Positions 39,407 to 48,331 of a DNA stretch of 64,000 nucleotides are shown here, in pieces. This stretch comes from Streptosporangiaceae bacterium (GTDB taxonomy: Bacteria; Actinomycetota; Actinomycetes; Streptosporangiales; Streptosporangiaceae). The DNA is taken from contig JASHQL010000156.1 of assembly GCA_030039155.1 (NCBI GenBank), positions 162 to 64,161 on the forward strand, in the 5' to 3' direction. The notes beneath the pieces are model-generated. The model saw nothing but the letters and a program-made list of their open reading frames with translations. It ran no database searches and was not told the origin of the DNA. The translations under genes were made by a program, and so were the position numbers. The number at the start of each line of letters is the position of its first letter. The stretch's first letter is position 1.

Positions 39407-40042
39407 CTACTCGTCGGGCGCAGTCCTCATTATGATCTCCAGCCGACTATGCAGGCCTAACTTATCGAGGATGCTTTCGATATGGGACTTGACTGTTGAC
39501 CGCGCGATGGAAAGCGCATCAGCGATCTGCGGGTTCGTCATCCCGAGCCGCACCAGCTCAAAGACCTCCCGCTCCCGTCTGGTGAGCTTCCTGCCTGCGT
39601 TGTCCCGGTCGCTGTCAATCTCATCGAGGACGGCGGCGTGGGCGAGTACCTCGTCGACGCCATCGCGCGGAAGCGGCATGTAGCCCGCCATCATCAGTGA
39701 GGCCATGGCGGCCAGGTGACTGGACACCACCTTGCTTCTGATGATGACGCACAGTCCGCTGCGGATGAGTTTCGACGCCCAGTCGCTGGTGCTGGCAACC
39801 AGCACCAGCACTGGCACCGCCACGGCCTTGTCGGCGAGACTGAGCCGAAACAGCGAACCCGCAGTCTCCGCGGTAATCGTCTCCAGGCAGATGACATACA
39901 GGTCCGGTCTTGGCAAATCTGACAGTGGATCGATATTGCGGTCGGCAGCAACGACCTGGACCGCAACGTCGCTGACGCTGGCAAGGGCGTTCTGAACGCC
40001 GCTGAGAACGAACTCATCGTCCCCAGCGACGACTATGCGCAT
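39407..40042 (-). CDS. LuxR-family regulator with atypical receiver-like N-terminal domain
   Basis: RBS GGAGGAGG upstream of ATG at 40042. C-terminal HTH LTRREREVFELVRLGMTNPQIADALSIARSTVKSHIESILDKLG. N-terminus MRIVVAGDDEF is receiver-like. Confidence 0.85.
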   Translation of the reverse strand: MRIVVAGDDEFVLSGVQNALASVSDVAVQVVAADRNIDPLSDLPRPDLYVICLETITAETAGSLFRLSLADKAVAVPVLVLVASTSDWASKLIRSGLCVIIRSKVVSSHLAAMASLMMAGYMPLPRDGVDEVLAHAAVLDEIDSDRDNAGRKLTRREREVFELVRLGMTNPQIADALSIARSTVKSHIESILDKLGLHSRLEIIMRTAPDE

Positions 40043-40201: not shown

Positions 40202-41464
40202 TTAGGTAACAGCTTCCGGCTGCCCGCGCTGCTTCTTCTGCTCCGATCTCAACGTGCTGAGCTTGCGGGAGGCCAGCACGGCTGAGGCCATGGCTACTGC
40301 GACCGCGGCCACCCCGGCGATGACGAACGTTGGCCGCGGACCGAATGCCTGTCCTATCGTGCCGCCAAGCACCAGGGCCACGACCATGCCGACCTGAACA
40401 AGGCCATTGAGCGACGCGATTGCCTTGCCCCGGTCCGCCTCGGGAGTGCGGCCGATCAGCACCGCACCGAAAGTGGCGTTGAGCGCGGTATTCGCCAGGC
40501 CGATGAGGAGGCCGAAGCAGAGGTAGACCGCGAAGTCCGGGGACAGGCCTGCGCCGATGCAGCCGAGCCCGACGAGCGCGAATCCAGCGAAGGTGATGGT
40601 CACTTGCCACGTGACCGCCTTGGCCCTGGCCGCGACCACCGAGCCAGCCACTCCGCCGACCGCCGCGGCGATCTCCGATAGTCCGTACAGGGACGCAGAG
40701 GTATGCAGGGACACGCGGACGAGGAAGACATCGACGACGTTCACGCCGCCGATCACCACGATCGTCGCGGTGAGTGCCCACATCATCGGCCAGACTATTG
40801 CGTCCTGCCTGATCGCGGAGAAGCCAGCAAACACCCTGGTGAAGGCTCTGGCGGCAGACGGCCGAGTGATGCCTTCCCGGTGTCCGGAGCGACGGGTTTG
40901 CACCAGCATCGCAGCGCAGGTCAGCAGCGCAAACGTAGCGGTGTCGACGAGCACGGCGGTGCGCATGCCAGTCAGTCCGAACAGCAGCCCGCCCAGGCCG
41001 GCACCGGCTGGGGCACCGACCGCGGCAAGACCGGACTGCAAGGCCACGAAGCTGCCGATCTTGTCTTCGCCCACGACTCTGGGCATCAGCGCCGTCCAGG
41101 TGGGCACAGTGAACGCCTGGCCAACCTGGATGGCGAAGACGAGCAGGAATACCGCGACCAGGTCGGAGGTGAAGGCAAGCGCGCAGCAGGCTAGCGTCTG
41201 CGCCGCCGTCGCGATGGCGAGCACGGTCCTGGAGTCGTAGGTGTCCGCAACATGGCCTGCGATACCTATCAGCAGCACCAGTGGCAGTGACTCCACGCCC
41301 AGCATCACTGCCACTGGCCAGATACCGATATGGGCACGCTCGAGGTACAGCAGCAACACGATGGCCAGCACGCTGTCCCCGAGCAGCGAGACGGCACGCG
41401 CCGGTACCACGATCCGGACATCGCGGATGCGCCAGAGCTGTCGTGGCGGGGCCTGCTCGGTCAC
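40202..41464 (-). CDS. MFS transporter
   Basis: GTG at 41464, 9 nt after RBS GGAAGGAG. About 12 hydrophobic helices, for example LLGDSVLAIVLLLYL and GVAAVAVAMASAVLA. Confidence 0.8.
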   Translation of the reverse strand: MTEQAPPRQLWRIRDVRIVVPARAVSLLGDSVLAIVLLLYLERAHIGIWPVAVMLGVESLPLVLLIGIAGHVADTYDSRTVLAIATAAQTLACCALAFTSDLVAVFLLVFAIQVGQAFTVPTWTALMPRVVGEDKIGSFVALQSGLAAVGAPAGAGLGGLLFGLTGMRTAVLVDTATFALLTCAAMLVQTRRSGHREGITRPSAARAFTRVFAGFSAIRQDAIVWPMMWALTATIVVIGGVNVVDVFLVRVSLHTSASLYGLSEIAAAVGGVAGSVVAARAKAVTWQVTITFAGFALVGLGCIGAGLSPDFAVYLCFGLLIGLANTALNATFGAVLIGRTPEADRGKAIASLNGLVQVGMVVALVLGGTIGQAFGPRPTFVIAGVAAVAVAMASAVLASRKLSTLRSEQKKQRGQPEAVT

Positions 41465-41516
41465 CTCACTCACCTCCTTCCTGGCCGGTCCGGCCGGGTC
41501 GCGGTGCCGAGCGGCT

Positions 41517-43475
41517 TCAGGGCACCGGCAGGTAGTCCGGCCGCCGTGCCAGCAGTGACCGGGCATCCGCCAGGTCAGCCGGTGAACCGGGCAGTACGCT
41601 CGAGATCGCGCGATGACGGATGGTGGCTAGCTCTAGGCAGTAGTCCTCCAGCAAGCCTGGGGGCAGCGACTTGGGGACCACGGGCGTGTAGTTGACGATC
41701 AGCGAGAGGATCCGGTCATCCACCTCGAGCAGCCAACCGATGTCCAGCAGCCCGGCTAGGGCTTTGACGCCAGCATCCCCTGCCCCGTCAAGCAGGTCGG
41801 CACGGCGCACACCGCGGTCGGACCGCTGGACGAGGTCAAGCTCGAGCGGCTCGAGGCAGCGCCGTGCCACCAGCGCGCCTGGCCTGGTATCAAACACCTG
41901 GCATCCGTCTGGCGTCTCGGCGCGCAGCAGTGCGCTGCCCGGATACTCGTCGCGCCACTCCTGCACGATCGAGTTCAGCACTACCCCATACTCTTCAGGG
42001 TTGTTGCCGTCGTCCGGTTCGAACTCAAAGTAGTAGGCCAGGTCGTCCAGTGCTGAGTCCGGCAGGCCGTAGACGAGCCGGTAAGCCCTGGACGGCCTGC
42101 GGTTGGCGACCCCCAGGGCCTTCCCGTCAAAGTGCAGCGGGCTGAACCGGTCCAGGCGCACCCGCCCGCCGGCTTCCGGCGGCTGCAGGTGGAAGAGTCG
42201 AGGCAGCATGCCGAACATTTGCAGGTAATCCTGCTTGCGCTCACGCGGGAACCCGTACAGCAGGTTCCAGGTCGCGGCAATGCCCAGCTCCTCTCCCCAT
42301 TTGAGCAGCCGGATGTTGTGGTACGCCTGCACACCCTTGCGCATGAGCATGAGCACCGGCGTGCTCATGCTCTCAATCCCCGGCTGAACGCTGCGGATGC
42401 CCGCCCGGCGCATGAGCACCAGCTGATCCCTGGTGACCTTGGACTTGATCTCATAGAACAGGTGCGCAGAGTGCTCGCGTTTGGCCAGTTCCGGTAGCAC
42501 CGTGCGGAAGTAACGGAAATCAAGGATGTTGTCCACCGCGTGTACGTTCTGGATACCGTACGAAAGCGCGGCGTGGATCTCCCGCAGCACATTGTCCGGG
42601 CTCTTGCTGCGGAACTGGAGGTTCTCTCCGTTCAGCCCGCAGAAGGTGCAATGCTGCTGCGCCCCGTACCAGCAGCCCCGGCTGGTCTCGATCGGGATCA
42701 GCAGCTCTGACTCCGCTATGCCGAGGTCGGCGCGGGCGAGCTGGCCAAGCCAGTCTTCAAACCGCGGCTGCGGCAACGCGTCCAGGTTCTGTGGCGGAAC
42801 AGGCCTGGCAACGCTCGGATGCGCGCGGGACAGCATCCCGGGGATGGCCGTGGCGTCGTCGGCGTGCCGTGCGATGGCGTTCGCCAGATTGAGCAGCGCC
42901 TGCTCGCCTTCGCCTGGGCAGACGTAGTCCACCCAGGGAAAGAGTCGCATCACGGCCGCGCCCATGCCCGCTTCGCAGGAGGCGCCGCCGAGCACAACCG
43001 GCACGCTCGGGTTGGCCGCCTTGAAATAGCGGGCCATCGACAGACTAGGCGCCAAGTTGAAGGTGGTGCTGAAGCATACGAGGTCGAAGCGGCGGTCGAT
43101 GATCTTCCGGCTCTCGGTACTGACGAGGTCGCGTGCCTCCGCCACCAGCGCAGGCAGGAGCTGCCCGATCCACGGGGGAACCCGCTTCCAGGCCGAATAG
43201 CGCGCTAGCTCCTCAGGGCTAGGCTCCCGGTCCTGCCCATCAGGATCCAGCCAGACCGGGGCGAACACGAGGTCGCTGAGGAGAATGTCGGCAGGCAGCC
43301 GCTCAGAGATCGTGGTGTAGAGGTTGACGCCGATGCGGCGGGCGAACTTCATGTTCAGGTAGCTGATTTCGACTATGTGGCCGTGCTGCTCGAGCACCGC
43401 TCGCAGCAGGCTCGGGCCGAGCGCGGGCCTGCGGACAGCCTGGAACGGCATCTGCGGGAACAAGATCCTGGTCAT
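41517..43475 (-). CDS. B12-binding-domain radical SAM enzyme, RiPP-maturation type, paralog 2
   Basis: MTRILFPQMPFQ, VVLGGASCE and GCWYGAQQHCTFCGLNG. Collinear similarity to 27834..29843 along the whole length. Confidence 0.85.
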   Translation of the reverse strand: MTRILFPQMPFQAVRRPALGPSLLRAVLEQHGHIVEISYLNMKFARRIGVNLYTTISERLPADILLSDLVFAPVWLDPDGQDREPSPEELARYSAWKRVPPWIGQLLPALVAEARDLVSTESRKIIDRRFDLVCFSTTFNLAPSLSMARYFKAANPSVPVVLGGASCEAGMGAAVMRLFPWVDYVCPGEGEQALLNLANAIARHADDATAIPGMLSRAHPSVARPVPPQNLDALPQPRFEDWLGQLARADLGIAESELLIPIETSRGCWYGAQQHCTFCGLNGENLQFRSKSPDNVLREIHAALSYGIQNVHAVDNILDFRYFRTVLPELAKREHSAHLFYEIKSKVTRDQLVLMRRAGIRSVQPGIESMSTPVLMLMRKGVQAYHNIRLLKWGEELGIAATWNLLYGFPRERKQDYLQMFGMLPRLFHLQPPEAGGRVRLDRFSPLHFDGKALGVANRRPSRAYRLVYGLPDSALDDLAYYFEFEPDDGNNPEEYGVVLNSIVQEWRDEYPGSALLRAETPDGCQVFDTRPGALVARRCLEPLELDLVQRSDRGVRRADLLDGAGDAGVKALAGLLDIGWLLEVDDRILSLIVNYTPVVPKSLPPGLLEDYCLELATIRHRAISSVLPGSPADLADARSLLARRPDYLPVP

Positions 43476-43495: not shown

Positions 43496-45268
43496 TCAGA
43501 CCGCGTCCGCGAGCTGTGGCACGCGGATGCGTCGCACTGTCTTCTTCTTCGTGTCGGCTGAGTAGAGCCAGTGACCGCGGCGGGCGGCCTCGAGATCGGC
43601 AAGCGGCCTGGTATCGAGGCCGGTGCAGTCAAGCCAGCTGAGCAACGGCGTCTGCGGATCGAGCAGCACGCTGACACCAAGCCAGTGCTCGAATTCCAGG
43701 ACCTGCAGCAGGACCTCGGTTCGTTCCTGGCCAAGGCCGAGGTGGCCGAGGAACTGCCGGAGCTCCGCATACACGCGCGATGCGCCAGTGGCCGGGTCGA
43801 ATGCCTGGGTAGCCGCAGACGGCGTGCCGCGCTCCTCGTGCCGCACCCAGCGCACGAACTCGGTGCCGAGCTCCGGGCCGAGCAGATCCCAGAGCAATCG
43901 CAGAGTGTTTCCGAACGGTCCCAGGTGCAGGATGAACCAGTAGATGTATCGGTAATGCGCGCGCGAGGTGTACTCGTTGGGAAAGTAGTAGAAGCTGCTG
44001 AAGATTCTTGGGTACCGGCGGATCTGCTCTTCCTCCCATGGCGTGACGGTCCACATGACCGCTACATCATTCAGGCGGCCGTCGAACTGCAACTGGTCTT
44101 CGTACTCGGCGGTCAGCTCGGTGCCGGCTAGCGGCGACAGTGAGTGAACTTGAACGTTGCGCATGGCCGGGCGCCACGAGCGAAATTCGAAGTAGAGATT
44201 CAGCGTGTCGGCAAGGTCGTCCGGGGTCTCGGCTGGGAAGCCGATGATCAGCGAGGCAGTTACGCCGATCTGGCGCTCCCACGCGGACCGCACCGCGATC
44301 TTGATGTCCGCTACCTTCAGGCCCTTCTTGATGGCCTGCTGCATGTTTTCCGAGCCCGACTCGACGCCGAAGAAGATCCGGCGGCATCCGGCTTCGTACA
44401 TCAGGTCAAGCAGGCTGTCGTCGATCCGGTCGGTGCGGGCACTGCACGCCCAGTCAAGGTGGAGATCTTCGCTGATCAGCCGTTTGCAGAGGTCCGCTAC
44501 CAGCCTGCGGTTCGTCGTGAACATGTCGTGCACGAACTCGAAATGGCTGCTGGCATGCTGCTCTCGCACCTTCTGCAGCTCGGCGATGATCATGTCGGCG
44601 CTGCGGAAGCGGAACCGGCGCTGGAAGAAAACCTTCGTCGAGCAGAACGTGCACTTATACGGGCAGCCGCGGCCGATCTCGACCGAGACTCCGCGGGCCC
44701 CCCCGTCAATTGGCGGTGGTGTGAGCGTGTAGTCGATGGGCCGGATGTCGTCGGCATCGATCAGCTGCGCTGGCTGGAGCTGCAGCGGGAGCAGCGTCAG
44801 GCGCGAAGCGCCTGGCGGGATGTAGATAAGGCCGGGGCGCACTGAGCGCTGACCGGTCGTGATCGCTTCCCAGAGGAACGTCACGACACTTTCCGCCTCG
44901 CCGATGACGATTCCGTCGATGAATTCATAGGCGGCCATGAGTTCACCGGGCACGCTGCTGGCCTGGGGCCCGCCGAGCACGACAGGCAAGCGGGGATGAA
45001 GTTCCTTGATCCGTTTCGCCAACGTCAGTGTCCGGGGCAGCGTGCCGCAGATCGTGCCAAGGCCAACCAGCCCAACATCCGGGCCGATGTGCAGGCCCGC
45101 AAGGAACTCTTCGAGATCGGTGTTGTCGGATGGCAGATAGTGAATGTCGACAGTCAGTCCGTGGTCTTCTTTGAGAATCGTGCCGACGACCATGACGCCC
45201 AGCGGCATCTCAGCCTGAAACTCGTCAGCTGTGCTGTTGACGAGTATCGCTCTGCTGCTGGGCGTCAC
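43496..45268 (-). CDS. class-B (B12-binding) radical SAM enzyme, distinct subfamily
   Basis: GTG at 45268, 4 nt after the upstream stop. B12-domain pattern PVVLGGPQAS. Canonical cluster GRGCPYKCTFCS. Confidence 0.85.
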   Translation of the reverse strand: MTPSSRAILVNSTADEFQAEMPLGVMVVGTILKEDHGLTVDIHYLPSDNTDLEEFLAGLHIGPDVGLVGLGTICGTLPRTLTLAKRIKELHPRLPVVLGGPQASSVPGELMAAYEFIDGIVIGEAESVVTFLWEAITTGQRSVRPGLIYIPPGASRLTLLPLQLQPAQLIDADDIRPIDYTLTPPPIDGGARGVSVEIGRGCPYKCTFCSTKVFFQRRFRFRSADMIIAELQKVREQHASSHFEFVHDMFTTNRRLVADLCKRLISEDLHLDWACSARTDRIDDSLLDLMYEAGCRRIFFGVESGSENMQQAIKKGLKVADIKIAVRSAWERQIGVTASLIIGFPAETPDDLADTLNLYFEFRSWRPAMRNVQVHSLSPLAGTELTAEYEDQLQFDGRLNDVAVMWTVTPWEEEQIRRYPRIFSSFYYFPNEYTSRAHYRYIYWFILHLGPFGNTLRLLWDLLGPELGTEFVRWVRHEERGTPSAATQAFDPATGASRVYAELRQFLGHLGLGQERTEVLLQVLEFEHWLGVSVLLDPQTPLLSWLDCTGLDTRPLADLEAARRGHWLYSADTKKKTVRRIRVPQLADAV

Positions 45269-45272
45269 CTCG

Positions 45273-46241
45273 TCAGACCTCGCCGTAGTACAGGGCCCGT
45301 AGCGTGTCGACCTGATCTCGGATTCTCTCGGCCGCGGCGTTCACCTTCGACTTGTTCTCCTCCTGCAGGAGCAGATGGCATGAACCGCACGGAGACCTCG
45401 CCAGAACCTCGTCATCAGGGTCGTCCCTGATGACGCCCGATTGGACGGCAAGCTGCCGCGCGCCGATGGTCCTGATCGTCTGCAACACACGACTATTACT
45501 GCGGGCATCCACCGCGTCCTTCAGCGGCGTGTTCTTCACATGCCCGAACCTGAGGTCATGGGGCCCGCGGACATACATGCTCTCGCCGCAGCAGCCGAAG
45601 ATCCCCCCGGTGCTGCGGATCATGAGCGTGGAGGCAGCAAGGCAAGGTTCGCGCTCCGGGAACATGGGGAAGACGCCGGGCTTCAGCTTGGTCGCGCGGC
45701 CAACCCGCATGACGCCGGAGAAGTGCACCCGCATGCGCTCGTCGTCGGTACCGAGGCCAAGTTCCTTGAGGATCTCCTCGAATTCCTCGCCTTCGGTATA
45801 GGTATATCGGATTACCGCGTCGATGCCGAGTTCCCTGGCCTCCTGCAGTGCGCGGCCTATGGCTCGCCTTGGAACGGCGGTTGCGTGATAGACATCGGCG
45901 CTGATGCCGAGTTTGCGCACGTCCAGGATCGAGTGCAGCACCTGCTGGCGTTCGGTGGAATCAACGGACCACGTGCCGTTGGTCGTCACCGAGTAGGCTA
46001 GGCCGAGGTCGCGGACGAGGCCGATCGCGTAGTAGAGCAGGTCTCGGACGTAGAAGACCTCGCCGCCGGTGAACCCTACTTCCGCCAGCGGATCGATCTC
46101 CTTGACCTGTTCAAGGACCGCCTTCAAGTATCCGCGGTCCAGCTTCGTCGTCACCTTTGGTGATGAGTTTGTCGAGCAATGCTGACACGCGAGATCACAA
46201 GACTCGGTCAGCTGGACCCCGACGCGGAGATTCTCGAACAT
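45273..46241 (-). CDS. radical SAM enzyme with C-terminal auxiliary-cluster-like Cys motifs (twitch/SPASM-like)
   Basis: ATG at 46241. CDLACQHC (CxxxCxxC) and GFTGGE. C-terminal Cys motifs EREPC, GIFGCCGE and SPCGSCH. Confidence 0.8.
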   Translation of the reverse strand: MFENLRVGVQLTESCDLACQHCSTNSSPKVTTKLDRGYLKAVLEQVKEIDPLAEVGFTGGEVFYVRDLLYYAIGLVRDLGLAYSVTTNGTWSVDSTERQQVLHSILDVRKLGISADVYHATAVPRRAIGRALQEARELGIDAVIRYTYTEGEEFEEILKELGLGTDDERMRVHFSGVMRVGRATKLKPGVFPMFPEREPCLAASTLMIRSTGGIFGCCGESMYVRGPHDLRFGHVKNTPLKDAVDARSNSRVLQTIRTIGARQLAVQSGVIRDDPDDEVLARSPCGSCHLLLQEENKSKVNAAAERIRDQVDTLRALYYGEV

Positions 46242-46322
46242 CGCACGATGCCTTCCGCGGTCCGATGGCAAGTGTTTTGGATCAGGTAACCCTCAGCAAG
46301 CAGTGATGTACCTGGCGCGTTC

Positions 46323-46553
46323 TTAGCTGACGTATACCGCCCCCACGCGGATCGCGGACTGGTCCATCATGTGCGCGGTGACGAGGTCCGATTCCTCGAC
46401 TTCGCTGATGTTGAGATCTCGCAGCATTGCCTTCTCGTGGTCGGTCAGTTCGAGTTCGCCCAGCGCCGCCGTCGAGTCAGCGCGGAACGCGTCGCGGAAG
46501 CTCTCGTCGGTCAGCAGCTGATTGATGACCTGCTTCACTACCTGGGATGACAC
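46323..46553 (-). CDS. candidate RiPP precursor peptide (76 aa) with LigA/NHLP-clan-like helical leader
   Basis: RBS GAGGAG 7 nt upstream of GTG at 46553. VSSQVVKQVINQLLTDESFRDAFRADSTAALGELELTDHEKAMLRDLNISEVEESDLVTAHMMDQSAIRVGAVYVS. It is the first gene of the collinear cluster, 81 nt upstream of a radical SAM gene. Confidence 0.65.
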   Translation of the reverse strand: MSSQVVKQVINQLLTDESFRDAFRADSTAALGELELTDHEKAMLRDLNISEVEESDLVTAHMMDQSAIRVGAVYVS

Positions 46554-46793: not shown

Positions 46794-47456
46794 CTACCCG
46801 CGGCTGAGCAGCGCGGCGAGCGGGTGCGGCAGCCGGTCCAGGTCAAGCGCCCCGGCCAGCAGGCGCGCATACCTGCTCTTGCGCATCGCGCCGCTGCCCA
46901 TGAACCGCCGCAGCTGCGGGCCGGCCGGCCGGCCGCGCCACTGCGGCTGCCGCTGCATGCTGCGGAACGAGCCGAGGTCACCCTGCGAGTCGACGAGCGC
47001 CTCTACCTGGTCGGTGCCGATCGCCCGGATGAGCTCGTCCTCCAGGTCCTTGACGCACACGTAGAAGCCGAGCCGCTCCATCTCGGCCCGCGACTCTGGC
47101 GAGCCGAGGCCGGCGCTGGCCAGGGCACGCCTGACGACGTGCTCCTCGCCGGTGTCGCACAGCCCGGCCAGCCTGAGGCCCGCGCCGGCCGGGCCGAACT
47201 GCCGCAGGAAGCGCGTCATCCCGTGCGCTCCGCCGGCCGGCAGCACCACCAGGCGCTCCGCCTCGAGGTCACGGCCGAGGCGGGCGGCGAGCGTCTCCAC
47301 CGCGATCTGGTCGCTGACGCCCTCGACGAGGACGATCGCCTGCGCGGCCGCGGCTTTCGCCAGCGCCGCCGCCGTCGCCTCGGTCGCGGCGGCCGGTCCG
47401 TGCACGTAGCCGTCGAGCAGCCGGCTGGCCAGCTCGCGCCGGCTGGTGATATCCAT
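46794..47456 (-). CDS. stand-alone TOPRIM (OLD-nuclease C-terminal-like) domain protein
   Basis: Trimmed to ATG at 47456. IVLVEGVSDQ (Toprim Glu) and GLCDTGEE (acidic cluster). About 220 aa with no ATPase domain. Confidence 0.6.
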   Translation of the reverse strand: MDITSRRELASRLLDGYVHGPAAATEATAAALAKAAAAQAIVLVEGVSDQIAVETLAARLGRDLEAERLVVLPAGGAHGMTRFLRQFGPAGAGLRLAGLCDTGEEHVVRRALASAGLGSPESRAEMERLGFYVCVKDLEDELIRAIGTDQVEALVDSQGDLGSFRSMQRQPQWRGRPAGPQLRRFMGSGAMRKSRYARLLAGALDLDRLPHPLAALLSRG

Positions 47457-47491
47457 CGAAATCGTCCCGTTCTGGCGTCCAGCATACCGAG

Positions 47492-48331
47492 GTGACCCGG
47501 TCGCCCGGGCATGACCTGCGGCTTTACACTCGCGCTGTGACATCGCCGCAGCAACCGGCCACCGCGGCCGACCCGGAAGTAGCCGCCACCGTTCGGCTGC
47601 TGCACCGCCGTCACGGCTGGGCCGCGCTGACCGTGACCGGCTTCTTCGCGTTCGCCTTAGGCGAGGGCGCCTACTCCAGCGCGCAGTCGCAGGGCACGCC
47701 GCCGCCGACCTGGTTCCTTGGCCTGGTAATCGCGCTCGGCGCGATGTTCGCCGTCGGCATCGTCGGGTGGGCGGTGGACAGTTCGCTGCTGCGGCGCAAG
47801 CACCCAGACATCCAGGCGCAGGCCGCGCCGATCGCCGCGCGGCACCCGAGCCGGCGCCTGCACCACTTCCCGCCGCGGCACGCGCTGCTCTGGGCAGCGC
47901 GCTGGGTCGGGCTGCTGGTGCTGCTCGGCGTGGCGGTGGTCACCGTGCCCGGTGTCGTGGACGGCGTCGCGTTCCTGACCGGCGCCGATAAGACCGTCAC
48001 GTTCGATCCGGTCTCCTACCAGACGAGCTGCGGTCAGTACGGCTGCCAGACCGGCACCGACGGCATCCTGGAAACCGGCGGCGCGGGTACCAGTGTGACC
48101 TGGCCGGATATGGTGCCGCTGAACAAGCCGTTCGGGGTCCGCGAGCCGGTGTGGCGGTGGGGGCTAGGTGAGGCGCTCATCAGCGGCGACGGCATCGCCA
48201 TCGCCGCTGTCGTGATCAGCCTGGGGATCGAGGGACTGGCCGTCTGGGTGCTGGTCAGCCTGGTCAGGCTGAGCAGAAACTGGATACGCCACCGGCGTCA
48301 GCAGACGCCAGCAGCCGTTGCGGTCGGCTGA
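47492..48331 (+). CDS. hypothetical membrane protein
   Basis: Four hydrophobic helices: ALTVTGFFAFALG, FLGLVIALGAMFAVGIVGW, WVGLLVLLGVAVVTVPGVV and IAIAAVVISLGIEGLAVWVLVSL. The start is uncertain. Confidence 0.5.
   Translation: MTRSPGHDLRLYTRAVTSPQQPATAADPEVAATVRLLHRRHGWAALTVTGFFAFALGEGAYSSAQSQGTPPPTWFLGLVIALGAMFAVGIVGWAVDSSLLRRKHPDIQAQAAPIAARHPSRRLHHFPPRHALLWAARWVGLLVLLGVAVVTVPGVVDGVAFLTGADKTVTFDPVSYQTSCGQYGCQTGTDGILETGGAGTSVTWPDMVPLNKPFGVREPVWRWGLGEALISGDGIAIAAVVISLGIEGLAVWVLVSLVRLSRNWIRHRRQQTPAAVAVG

Follow-up and report, generated by a model that had tools for sequence, protein, structure and literature searches.

An EpeE/YydG-like radical SAM enzyme beside a cysteine-free precursor peptide in a Streptosporangiaceae bacterium: a probable L-to-D epimerase of the precursor tail

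Which reaction would a small radical S-adenosylmethionine (SAM) enzyme carry out on a ribosomal peptide whose core lacks cysteine? The question is raised by a stretch of 64,000 nucleotides (here called the window) from a Streptosporangiaceae bacterium (contig JASHQL010000156.1 of assembly GCA_030039155.1, positions 162 to 64,161 of the forward strand), in which the gene of a 322-amino-acid (aa) radical SAM enzyme follows that of a 76-aa precursor. By analogy with EpeE (=YydG), the radical SAM epimerase of the epipeptide of Bacillus subtilis, we propose that the enzyme probably converts L- to D-residues at Val/Ile positions of the C-terminal tail of the precursor. Homology, fold, conservation of the catalytic cysteines and gene linkage were observed; from them we infer the reaction, its target residues, the auxiliary-cluster ligands and the order of steps. 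The two genes are:

45273..46241, minus strand: 322-aa radical SAM enzyme, EpeE/YydG-like ('T-SPASM') putative peptide epimerase (TIGR04078, PDB EpeE, Foldseek, hhalign, dN/dS)
46323..46553, minus strand: 76-aa precursor, presumed substrate, with a Cys- and Trp-free tail ...VTAHMMDQSAIRVGAVYVS (NF038399, PF14407, conserved neighbour gene)

In the open reading frame (ORF) list of the window, the enzyme lies within a minus-strand ORF of 332 aa with a TTG start (45273-46271). The ATG at 46241, which stands 9 nt behind a ggaagg ribosome-binding site, gives the 322-aa enzyme (frame 45273-46241, minus strand; N-terminus MFENLRVGV), and this N-terminus, MFENLRVGVQLTESCDLACQHC..., agrees with the N-termini of all homologs. 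Compared with five homologs, the gene showed a ratio of nonsynonymous to synonymous substitution rates (dN/dS) of 0.10-0.24, with dS near saturation; it is therefore a maintained coding sequence. Clearly, the enzyme gene is real and under purifying selection. A genome profile search found it as a single copy in the window's own genome. It is the first gene after the precursor, as the initial annotation had stated, and 81 nt separate the two. No terminator-like site was found. A regulatory RNA in the gap was considered and rejected, the folding of this segment being no better than that of shuffled sequence (z 0.56).

Employing Pfam, we found Radical_SAM (PF04055) alone in the enzyme (40.1 bits, gathering score 29.5), with no match to the SPASM domain PF13186 (E<=0.01), to a recognition element (RRE) of peptides made on the ribosome and modified after translation (RiPPs), or to PqqD. 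The best NCBIfam match was TIGR04078, the YydG peptide epimerase (82.3 bits, E 4.3e-23, residues 7-246; 81.4 bits in the genome search). Among the matches listed (25 of the 37 below E 0.01), YydG was the sole family aligning past about residue 190, and the remaining ones (viperin-like, tungsten-cofactor maturase, NirJ, AhbD, MoaA and SPASM maturases) scored 20-39 bits over the N-terminal core. Searched against the PDB as a single sequence (phmmer), the enzyme had the EpeE entries 8AI1-8AI6 as its sole significant relatives (E 3e-18); the family profile (hmmsearch) reached EpeE at E 5e-33, spanning residues 5-297. When the enzyme family was compared by hhalign with a YydG-proximal group, the probability was 100% (E 5e-50, 293 columns).

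An AlphaFold2 model with the family alignment as input had a mean predicted local distance difference test score of 89.8 and a predicted template-modelling score of 0.87. Compared with the PDB by Foldseek, ranks 1-9 were all EpeE chains, aligned over the full length (E ~1e-15, template-modelling (TM) score 0.73-0.76); the sactisynthase CteB followed at rank 10 (E 3e-7, TM 0.54). The comparison with YydG that the initial annotation had suggested thus yielded full-length homology by NCBIfam, PDB, Foldseek and hhalign. Judged by sequence and predicted structure, the enzyme is a full-length but distant homolog of YydG/EpeE. It lies outside the YydG equivalog family, because its score is under the cut-off and because operon, precursor family and phylum all differ.

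The extended twitch ('T-SPASM') domain of EpeE carries a single auxiliary [4Fe-4S] cluster (PMC13012085). In the enzyme, all Cys motifs named in the initial annotation are present (CDLACQHC, within ESCDLACQHC; EREPC; GIFGCCGE; SPCGSCH), and their positions and YydG equivalents are as follows:

46176..46199, minus strand: radical SAM cluster motif CDLACQHC with C15/C19/C22, invariant, equivalent to YydG C14/C18/C21
45642..45644, minus strand: C200 (EREPC), predicted auxiliary [4Fe-4S] ligand, equivalent to YydG C206
45588..45593, minus strand: C217-C218 (GCCGE), equivalent to YydG C222/C223, with C217 a predicted auxiliary ligand and C218 the counterpart of the H-atom donor
45378..45389, minus strand: C285-x-x-C288 (SPCGSCH), predicted auxiliary-cluster ligands, invariant, equivalent to YydG C289/C292

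These eight cysteines (C15/C19/C22, C200, C217, C218, C285 and C288) were invariant across 18 aligned family members. In a MAFFT alignment of 152 sequences, comprising the window protein, its family, superfamily representatives and YydG residues 4-301, the C200 column held Cys in all but one (151/152). The match of C217-C218 to C222-C223 agreed in the phmmer, hmmsearch, MAFFT and hhalign alignments, and the C-terminal domain of the model superposes on EpeE (full-length Foldseek alignment, TM 0.75). Common to YydG and the superfamily are also H21, S26-S27-P28, T58-G-G-E61, N88, W91, D116, H119, G181, G212, R257 and G260. Five C-terminal cysteines are thus the number expected for one H-donor and four cluster ligands, and we infer that the auxiliary cluster is held by C200, C217, C285 and C288. 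The initial expectation of one twitch-like auxiliary cluster, with fewer Cys than a full SPASM domain, agrees with the lack of PF13186 and with the number of C-terminal cysteines; EpeE likewise has one such cluster.

The H-atom donor of EpeE is established as C223; on the face away from SAM, it quenches the C-alpha radical of the substrate (PMC13012085, PMC5682303). No full-length member of the clade formed by the enzyme and its close relatives lacks either cysteine of the corresponding C217-C218 pair, whereas 20 of the 152 wider superfamily representatives carry C[IVM]G, without the second Cys at the donor position. That the donor Cys is kept in the clade yet lost in those 20 relatives suggests function-specific retention. 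The C[IVM]G representatives include P0047, P0053, P0054 and P0062; judging from this residue, they may catalyse something other than epimerisation.

The presumed substrate starts at a GTG located 7 nt after GAGGAG and reads MSSQVVKQ...AIRVGAVYVS. Its leader is helical and resembles those of the nitrile hydratase leader peptide (NHLP) clan and Frankia peptides. It matched NF038399 (Os1348 family) with 39.2 bits against a cut-off of 40 and PF14407 weakly, and so stays just under the NHLP-clan cut-offs (39.2 vs 40; 25.9 vs 34). For Os1348, a related leader has been described with a different enzyme set (GNAT, peptidase, SagB-like) (PMC7726476). Nine related precursors share the helical leader and the tail [VI]-[AS]-[HR]-x-[ML]-[DE]-x-x-[AG]-[IVL]-[RKT]-[VI]-x-[STA]-[VL]-[YTV].. 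The tail is conserved and Val/Ile-rich, with Val or Ile in the V70 column of all nine. Trp occurs in none of the nine tails, and Cys in one, at its terminus. Read directly, the window precursor contains neither Cys nor Trp; because its core has neither, sactionine or ranthionine thioethers and Trp crosslinks had been excluded from the start. This deduction is sound, and it holds in eight of the nine related precursors, the ninth being the one that ends in Cys. EpeE epimerises Val and Ile (PMC13012085).

The proposed reaction would proceed as follows. A [4Fe-4S] cluster on C15/C19/C22 would reductively cleave SAM to give a 5'-deoxyadenosyl radical, which would take the hydrogen from the C-alpha of at least one L-residue of the tail, probably at the conserved Val/Ile positions I68, V70 and V73 of ...AIRVGAVYVS. 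The thiol hydrogen of C218 would quench the planar C-alpha radical from the opposite face, so that a D-residue with a solvent-derived hydrogen results. The thiyl radical would then be re-reduced via the neighbouring auxiliary [4Fe-4S] cluster (C200, C217, C285, C288), and such help of the auxiliary cluster has been proposed for YydG (PMC5682303). The B12 radical SAM enzymes encoded downstream may C-methylate the same tail, after or before epimerisation, and the product would exit through a major facilitator superfamily (MFS) transporter. Proteusins of the polytheonamide type are known to combine epimerisation with B12-dependent C-methylation (PMC8326336). Proteusin-type epimerisation was in fact one option of the initial annotation. 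The reaction that it named is favoured here, through the homology to EpeE; its 'proteusin-type' names the wrong enzyme family, because proteusin epimerases are unrelated to EpeE, have a single cluster and carry an RRE.

Several observations weigh against epimerisation. The enzyme is only ~22% identical to EpeE (Foldseek), and its 82 bits do not reach the TIGR04078 equivalog cut-off of 300 bits; radical SAM enzymes so far apart often switch reaction. D210 of EpeE is not conserved and aligns to the variable S204/T205 of the enzyme; EpeE was crystallised as a D210A mutant (PDB entry), so this residue is deemed important. The epimerisation sites of EpeX (the YydF sequence) have an aromatic-Val or aromatic-Ile context (F-V, W-I). 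This context is absent from the tail of the window precursor, and therefore no epimerised residue can be predicted from it. The long helical NHLP-clan/Frankia-peptide-type leader is unrelated to that of the EpeE substrate, and the cluster has neither an EpeP membrane protease nor an EpeAB ATP-binding cassette transporter, both of which are found in epeXEPAB of Bacillus subtilis. Finally, the hosts here are Actinomycetota plus a few Pseudomonadota, whereas epipeptides have been described as restricted to Bacillota (PMC13012085).

Some of these points also count in favour of the most serious alternative, that an enzyme with the EpeE fold modifies this peptide by other radical chemistry, for instance by a C-C or C-O crosslink from Tyr74 or His61, by alpha,beta-desaturation, or by an H-abstraction that primes a site for the B12 enzymes. 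This alternative covers both the crosslink option and the new chemistry of the initial annotation. It gains from the identity of ~22% to EpeE and the score under the family cut-off, from the lack of conservation of D210, from a large, uncharacterised superfamily (212 clusters at E<1e-30) with varied contexts (Asn-synthase-like and LanKC-like neighbours), and from Tyr74, which is kept in the five closest tails and replaced in four. It is opposed by the H-atom-donor Cys, which returns hydrogen to the substrate radical and is present in all full-length clade members though lost in other branches. Nor does the enzyme have the second SPASM auxiliary cluster of cyclophane- or crosslink-forming enzymes. 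Cleavage of the leader probably falls at or after His61, and Tyr74 is absent from the four more distant precursors (L003, L004, L059 and L060), in which it is replaced. We consider a different reaction unlikely, though still with an appreciable chance. Slightly less probable again is that the EpeE-type scaffold has been recruited beyond simple epimerisation, with the radical captured in a crosslink or desaturation, or coupled to the B12 methyltransferases. If the chemistry is not epimerisation, the clade would represent the first T-SPASM enzyme to have diverged in function, and the cluster would be a new class of RiPP.

Epimerisation by an EpeE-type enzyme fares far better against the other candidates. 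The tail has an aromatic residue followed by two others, and the initial annotation had accordingly considered a crosslink on the Y-V-S or H-M-M triplets, such as a SPASM enzyme forming three-residue cyclophanes would make. Such an enzyme is very improbable here: Pfam found no SPASM domain, and there are five C-terminal Cys against about seven for two SPASM auxiliary clusters. Among the matches listed (25 of 37 NCBIfam), there was no cyclophane-maturase family, and the SPASM-family matches ended at about residue 120-185. The structural neighbours are EpeE, not SPASM enzymes, and the H-M-M triplet is not conserved, being HEM, RDM, QKM or RDL in relatives. With no SPASM domain, SPASM matches confined to the N-terminus and the EpeE donor Cys invariant, the crosslink or cyclophane option has found no support.

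We give as little chance to a non-peptide radical SAM enzyme, that is, an activase or a cofactor-maturation enzyme. The homologs P0004, P0010 and P0016 are named 'pyruvate-formate lyase-activating enzyme' or 'organic radical activating enzyme' in metagenome annotation, and there are weak N-terminal matches to the NrdG, NirJ, AhbD and MoaA models. These matches, however, are 20-39 bits against cut-offs of 130-650 and concern the generic core only, while genes for a precursor peptide and RiPP enzymes consistently accompany this gene, with no glycyl-radical enzyme or cofactor pathway genes nearby. Orthology to a cofactor-maturation enzyme, which the initial annotation had named as grounds for rejection, was not found: the NirJ, AhbD, MoaA, tungsten-cofactor maturase and viperin models match residues ~5-185 with 20-39 bits.

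Least probable of all is an epimerase of the PoyD/OspD family, which the proteusin-like look of the cluster (NHLP-clan-like leader, TIGR03975 C-methyltransferase) might suggest. [quoted passage not shown]

The enzyme is rare. Its close family comprises 19 proteins with 39-100% identity among 5.8 billion clustered proteins, or about 13 clusters at 50% identity among 1.84 billion representatives, and forms a clade (support 0.987) far from YydG in the tree. True full-length members were found in 2 of 185,579 species genomes, those of Streptosporangiaceae bacterium NEAU-GS5 and a Rhodobacteraceae metagenome-assembled genome; the scan covered one genome per species, possibly without that of the window itself. 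The other 49 of the 51 scan loci were discarded. They gave partial matches (within residues 4-199, 27-39% identity) to the N-terminal half alone, and are therefore generic radical SAM core matches. Among 300 genomes of the window's taxonomic family, one other genome had the enzyme, in two copies, and 12 further ones had distant YydG-like matches only.

The surrounding EpeE-like superfamily is much larger, with 212 clusters at E<1e-30 and 2,458 at E<1e-10. Ten of its representatives were scanned with NCBIfam; YydG was the best family for all ten, each time under its cut-off. EpeE was the only studied member of the superfamily found among PDB entries and NCBIfam models. Another genome from the same taxonomic family as the window encodes a radical SAM enzyme distantly similar to YydG (L063:1171-2172, minus strand; 333 aa, E 2e-33, CC pair present) directly upstream of an asparagine-synthase-like gene (L063:2-1174, minus strand) of the kind used as lasso-peptide cyclases. 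A metagenomic ORF, P0030 (679 aa), has two EpeE-like halves in tandem, the second matching the family profile at residues 7-321; either the two paralogs (see below) are fused in it, or separate genes were merged in the gene call.

The actinobacterial clade consists of two sister paralog groups, A (the window protein and P0002-P0005) and B (P0006, P0008, P0009, P0011, P0012 and P0013). In NEAU-GS5, one group A and one group B gene divergently flank the precursor (L001:8395-9372 and L001:10001-10969), and P0002 and P0012 share a 3.6-kb contig; the window has group A only. Two epimerases may mean two sets of D-sites.

Downstream of the enzyme, the window encodes the following:

43496..45268, minus strand: 590-aa B12-binding radical SAM enzyme, ApyD-like, probable peptide C-methyltransferase (NF050148 ApyD 252 bits; Pfam B12-binding and Radical_SAM)
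41517..43475, minus strand: 652-aa RiPP-maturation B12 radical SAM C-methyltransferase of the PoyB/PoyC-type family (TIGR03975 531 bits, cut-off 282)
40202..41566, minus strand: MFS transporter, probable exporter, exact start codon uncertain (Pfam MFS_1, MFS_3)
39407..40042, minus strand: LuxR-family regulator (Pfam GerE), present also in L001 and L057

The gene of the 590-aa enzyme begins 4 nt after the stop codon of the putative epimerase gene. Homologs of 577-595 aa adjoin the putative epimerase in L002, L003, L058 and L060, and homologs of the TIGR03975 enzyme (648-677 aa) occur in L001, L002, L004, L057 and L058. The MFS transporter is conserved in L001, L002, L004 and L057. A gene close upstream of the precursor (46794-47543, minus strand), where a stretch of lower GC has its edge, encodes a product of 249 aa with an OLD-like TOPRIM domain (PF20469, E 2e-8). 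GC content is 0.61-0.68 across 28-46 kb of the window vs 0.69-0.73 in the flanks, and that of third codon positions is 0.79 in the putative epimerase gene vs 0.91 in one flanking gene.

Gene linkage was compared over ten related loci. A homologous precursor of 73-81 aa stands directly beside the enzyme in nine of them, and at least one B12-binding radical SAM enzyme is adjacent in eight, with sizes given for seven:

L001: precursor adjacent; B12 radical SAM enzyme of 664 aa
L002: precursor adjacent; B12 radical SAM enzymes of 593 and 657 aa
L003: precursor adjacent; B12 radical SAM enzyme of 577 aa
L004: precursor adjacent; B12 radical SAM enzyme of 677 aa
L057: precursor adjacent; B12 radical SAM enzyme of 648 aa
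L058: precursor adjacent; B12 radical SAM enzymes of 589 and 669 aa
L059: precursor adjacent; B12 radical SAM enzyme cut by the contig end
L060: precursor adjacent; B12 radical SAM enzyme of 595 aa
L067: precursor adjacent, frameshifted; no B12 radical SAM enzyme seen, the contig starting at the precursor
L068: no precursor seen, the contig ending just upstream; no B12 radical SAM enzyme, with JmjC-like and LanKC-like genes instead

In L067, from a metagenome-assembled genome, a frameshift puts the leader of the precursor gene upstream of P0006 (L067:2-276) and its tail, ...AHLMYQSAIRVGAVYVT, into different frames, either through faulty assembly or because the gene has decayed. In L068 (130-4542), P0013 of group B is followed by a JmjC/cupin-like gene and then by a RamC_N/Pkinase/LANC-like gene, which resembles class III/IV lanthipeptide synthetases. 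This arrangement may represent a different peptide class using the same epimerase type. In L003, from Rhodobacteraceae, a separate 398-aa radical SAM/SPASM gene (L003:5108-6304, minus strand) lies ~1.4 kb upstream of the precursor, and the relaxase, resolvase and ArdC-like genes around it suggest that the L003 cluster is on a mobile element.

The known radical SAM epimerases of ribosomal peptides belong to two unrelated families, the PoyD type, which is paired with B12 C-methyltransferases in the proteusins, and the EpeE type, which stands alone in the epipeptides of Bacillota. The window cluster is an EpeE-type enzyme in a proteusin-like setting, in actinomycetes. In a literature search, no published description was found of the enzyme clade or of the combination of enzyme, precursor and B12 genes. 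If the enzyme is an epimerase as proposed, EpeE-type epimerases are not confined to Bacillota, and the pairing of D-residues with C-methylation was put together independently, out of different parts. Peptide engineering would then gain a small epimerase that lacks an RRE and acts on a short tail of ~15 residues. The analysis has also exposed a large unnamed superfamily of EpeE-like enzymes (212 clusters, E<1e-30).

Three known systems can be set beside the window cluster. The first is ApyD, the B12 radical SAM enzyme of aminopyruvatide, a Tyr C-beta methyltransferase whose target Tyr lies near the C-terminus (bioRxiv 10.1101/2023.10.30.564719). ApyD is the best named relative of the neighbour gene at 43496-45268, and the tail of the window precursor has Tyr74 two residues from its end. 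The likeness concerns this neighbour gene, however, not the putative epimerase; its score is 252 bits against the 750-bit cut-off of NF050148, and the window cluster has no MNIO or P450 partners. By analogy, beta-methyl-Tyr is a candidate modification of the precursor at Tyr74.

To EpeE, the window enzyme is close in size (322 aa vs 319 aa) and in fold (TM 0.75 over the full-length alignment). Both have the CxxxCxxC motif, four further cysteines fitting a single auxiliary cluster, and a Cys-Cys pair including the H-atom donor; both lack an RRE; and in both the gene is directly behind that of a short precursor with a Val/Ile-rich tail. They differ in that the window enzyme belongs to a separate clade (support 0.987), with ~22% identity and 82 vs 300 bits, and in that its cluster has B12 radical SAM methyltransferases, an MFS transporter and a LuxR regulator instead of the protease and transporter of epeXEPAB.

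From the proteusins (PoyA/B/C/D; OspA/OspD; PlpA/PlpD), the window cluster differs in its putative epimerase, which is of the EpeE family and not of the PoyD family (PMC8326336), and in its precursor, which stays just under the NHLP-clan cut-offs and has a core of only ~15 residues. It resembles them in its long structured leader of the NHLP type, in radical SAM epimerisation, as predicted here, and in B12-dependent C-methylation by a TIGR03975-family enzyme.

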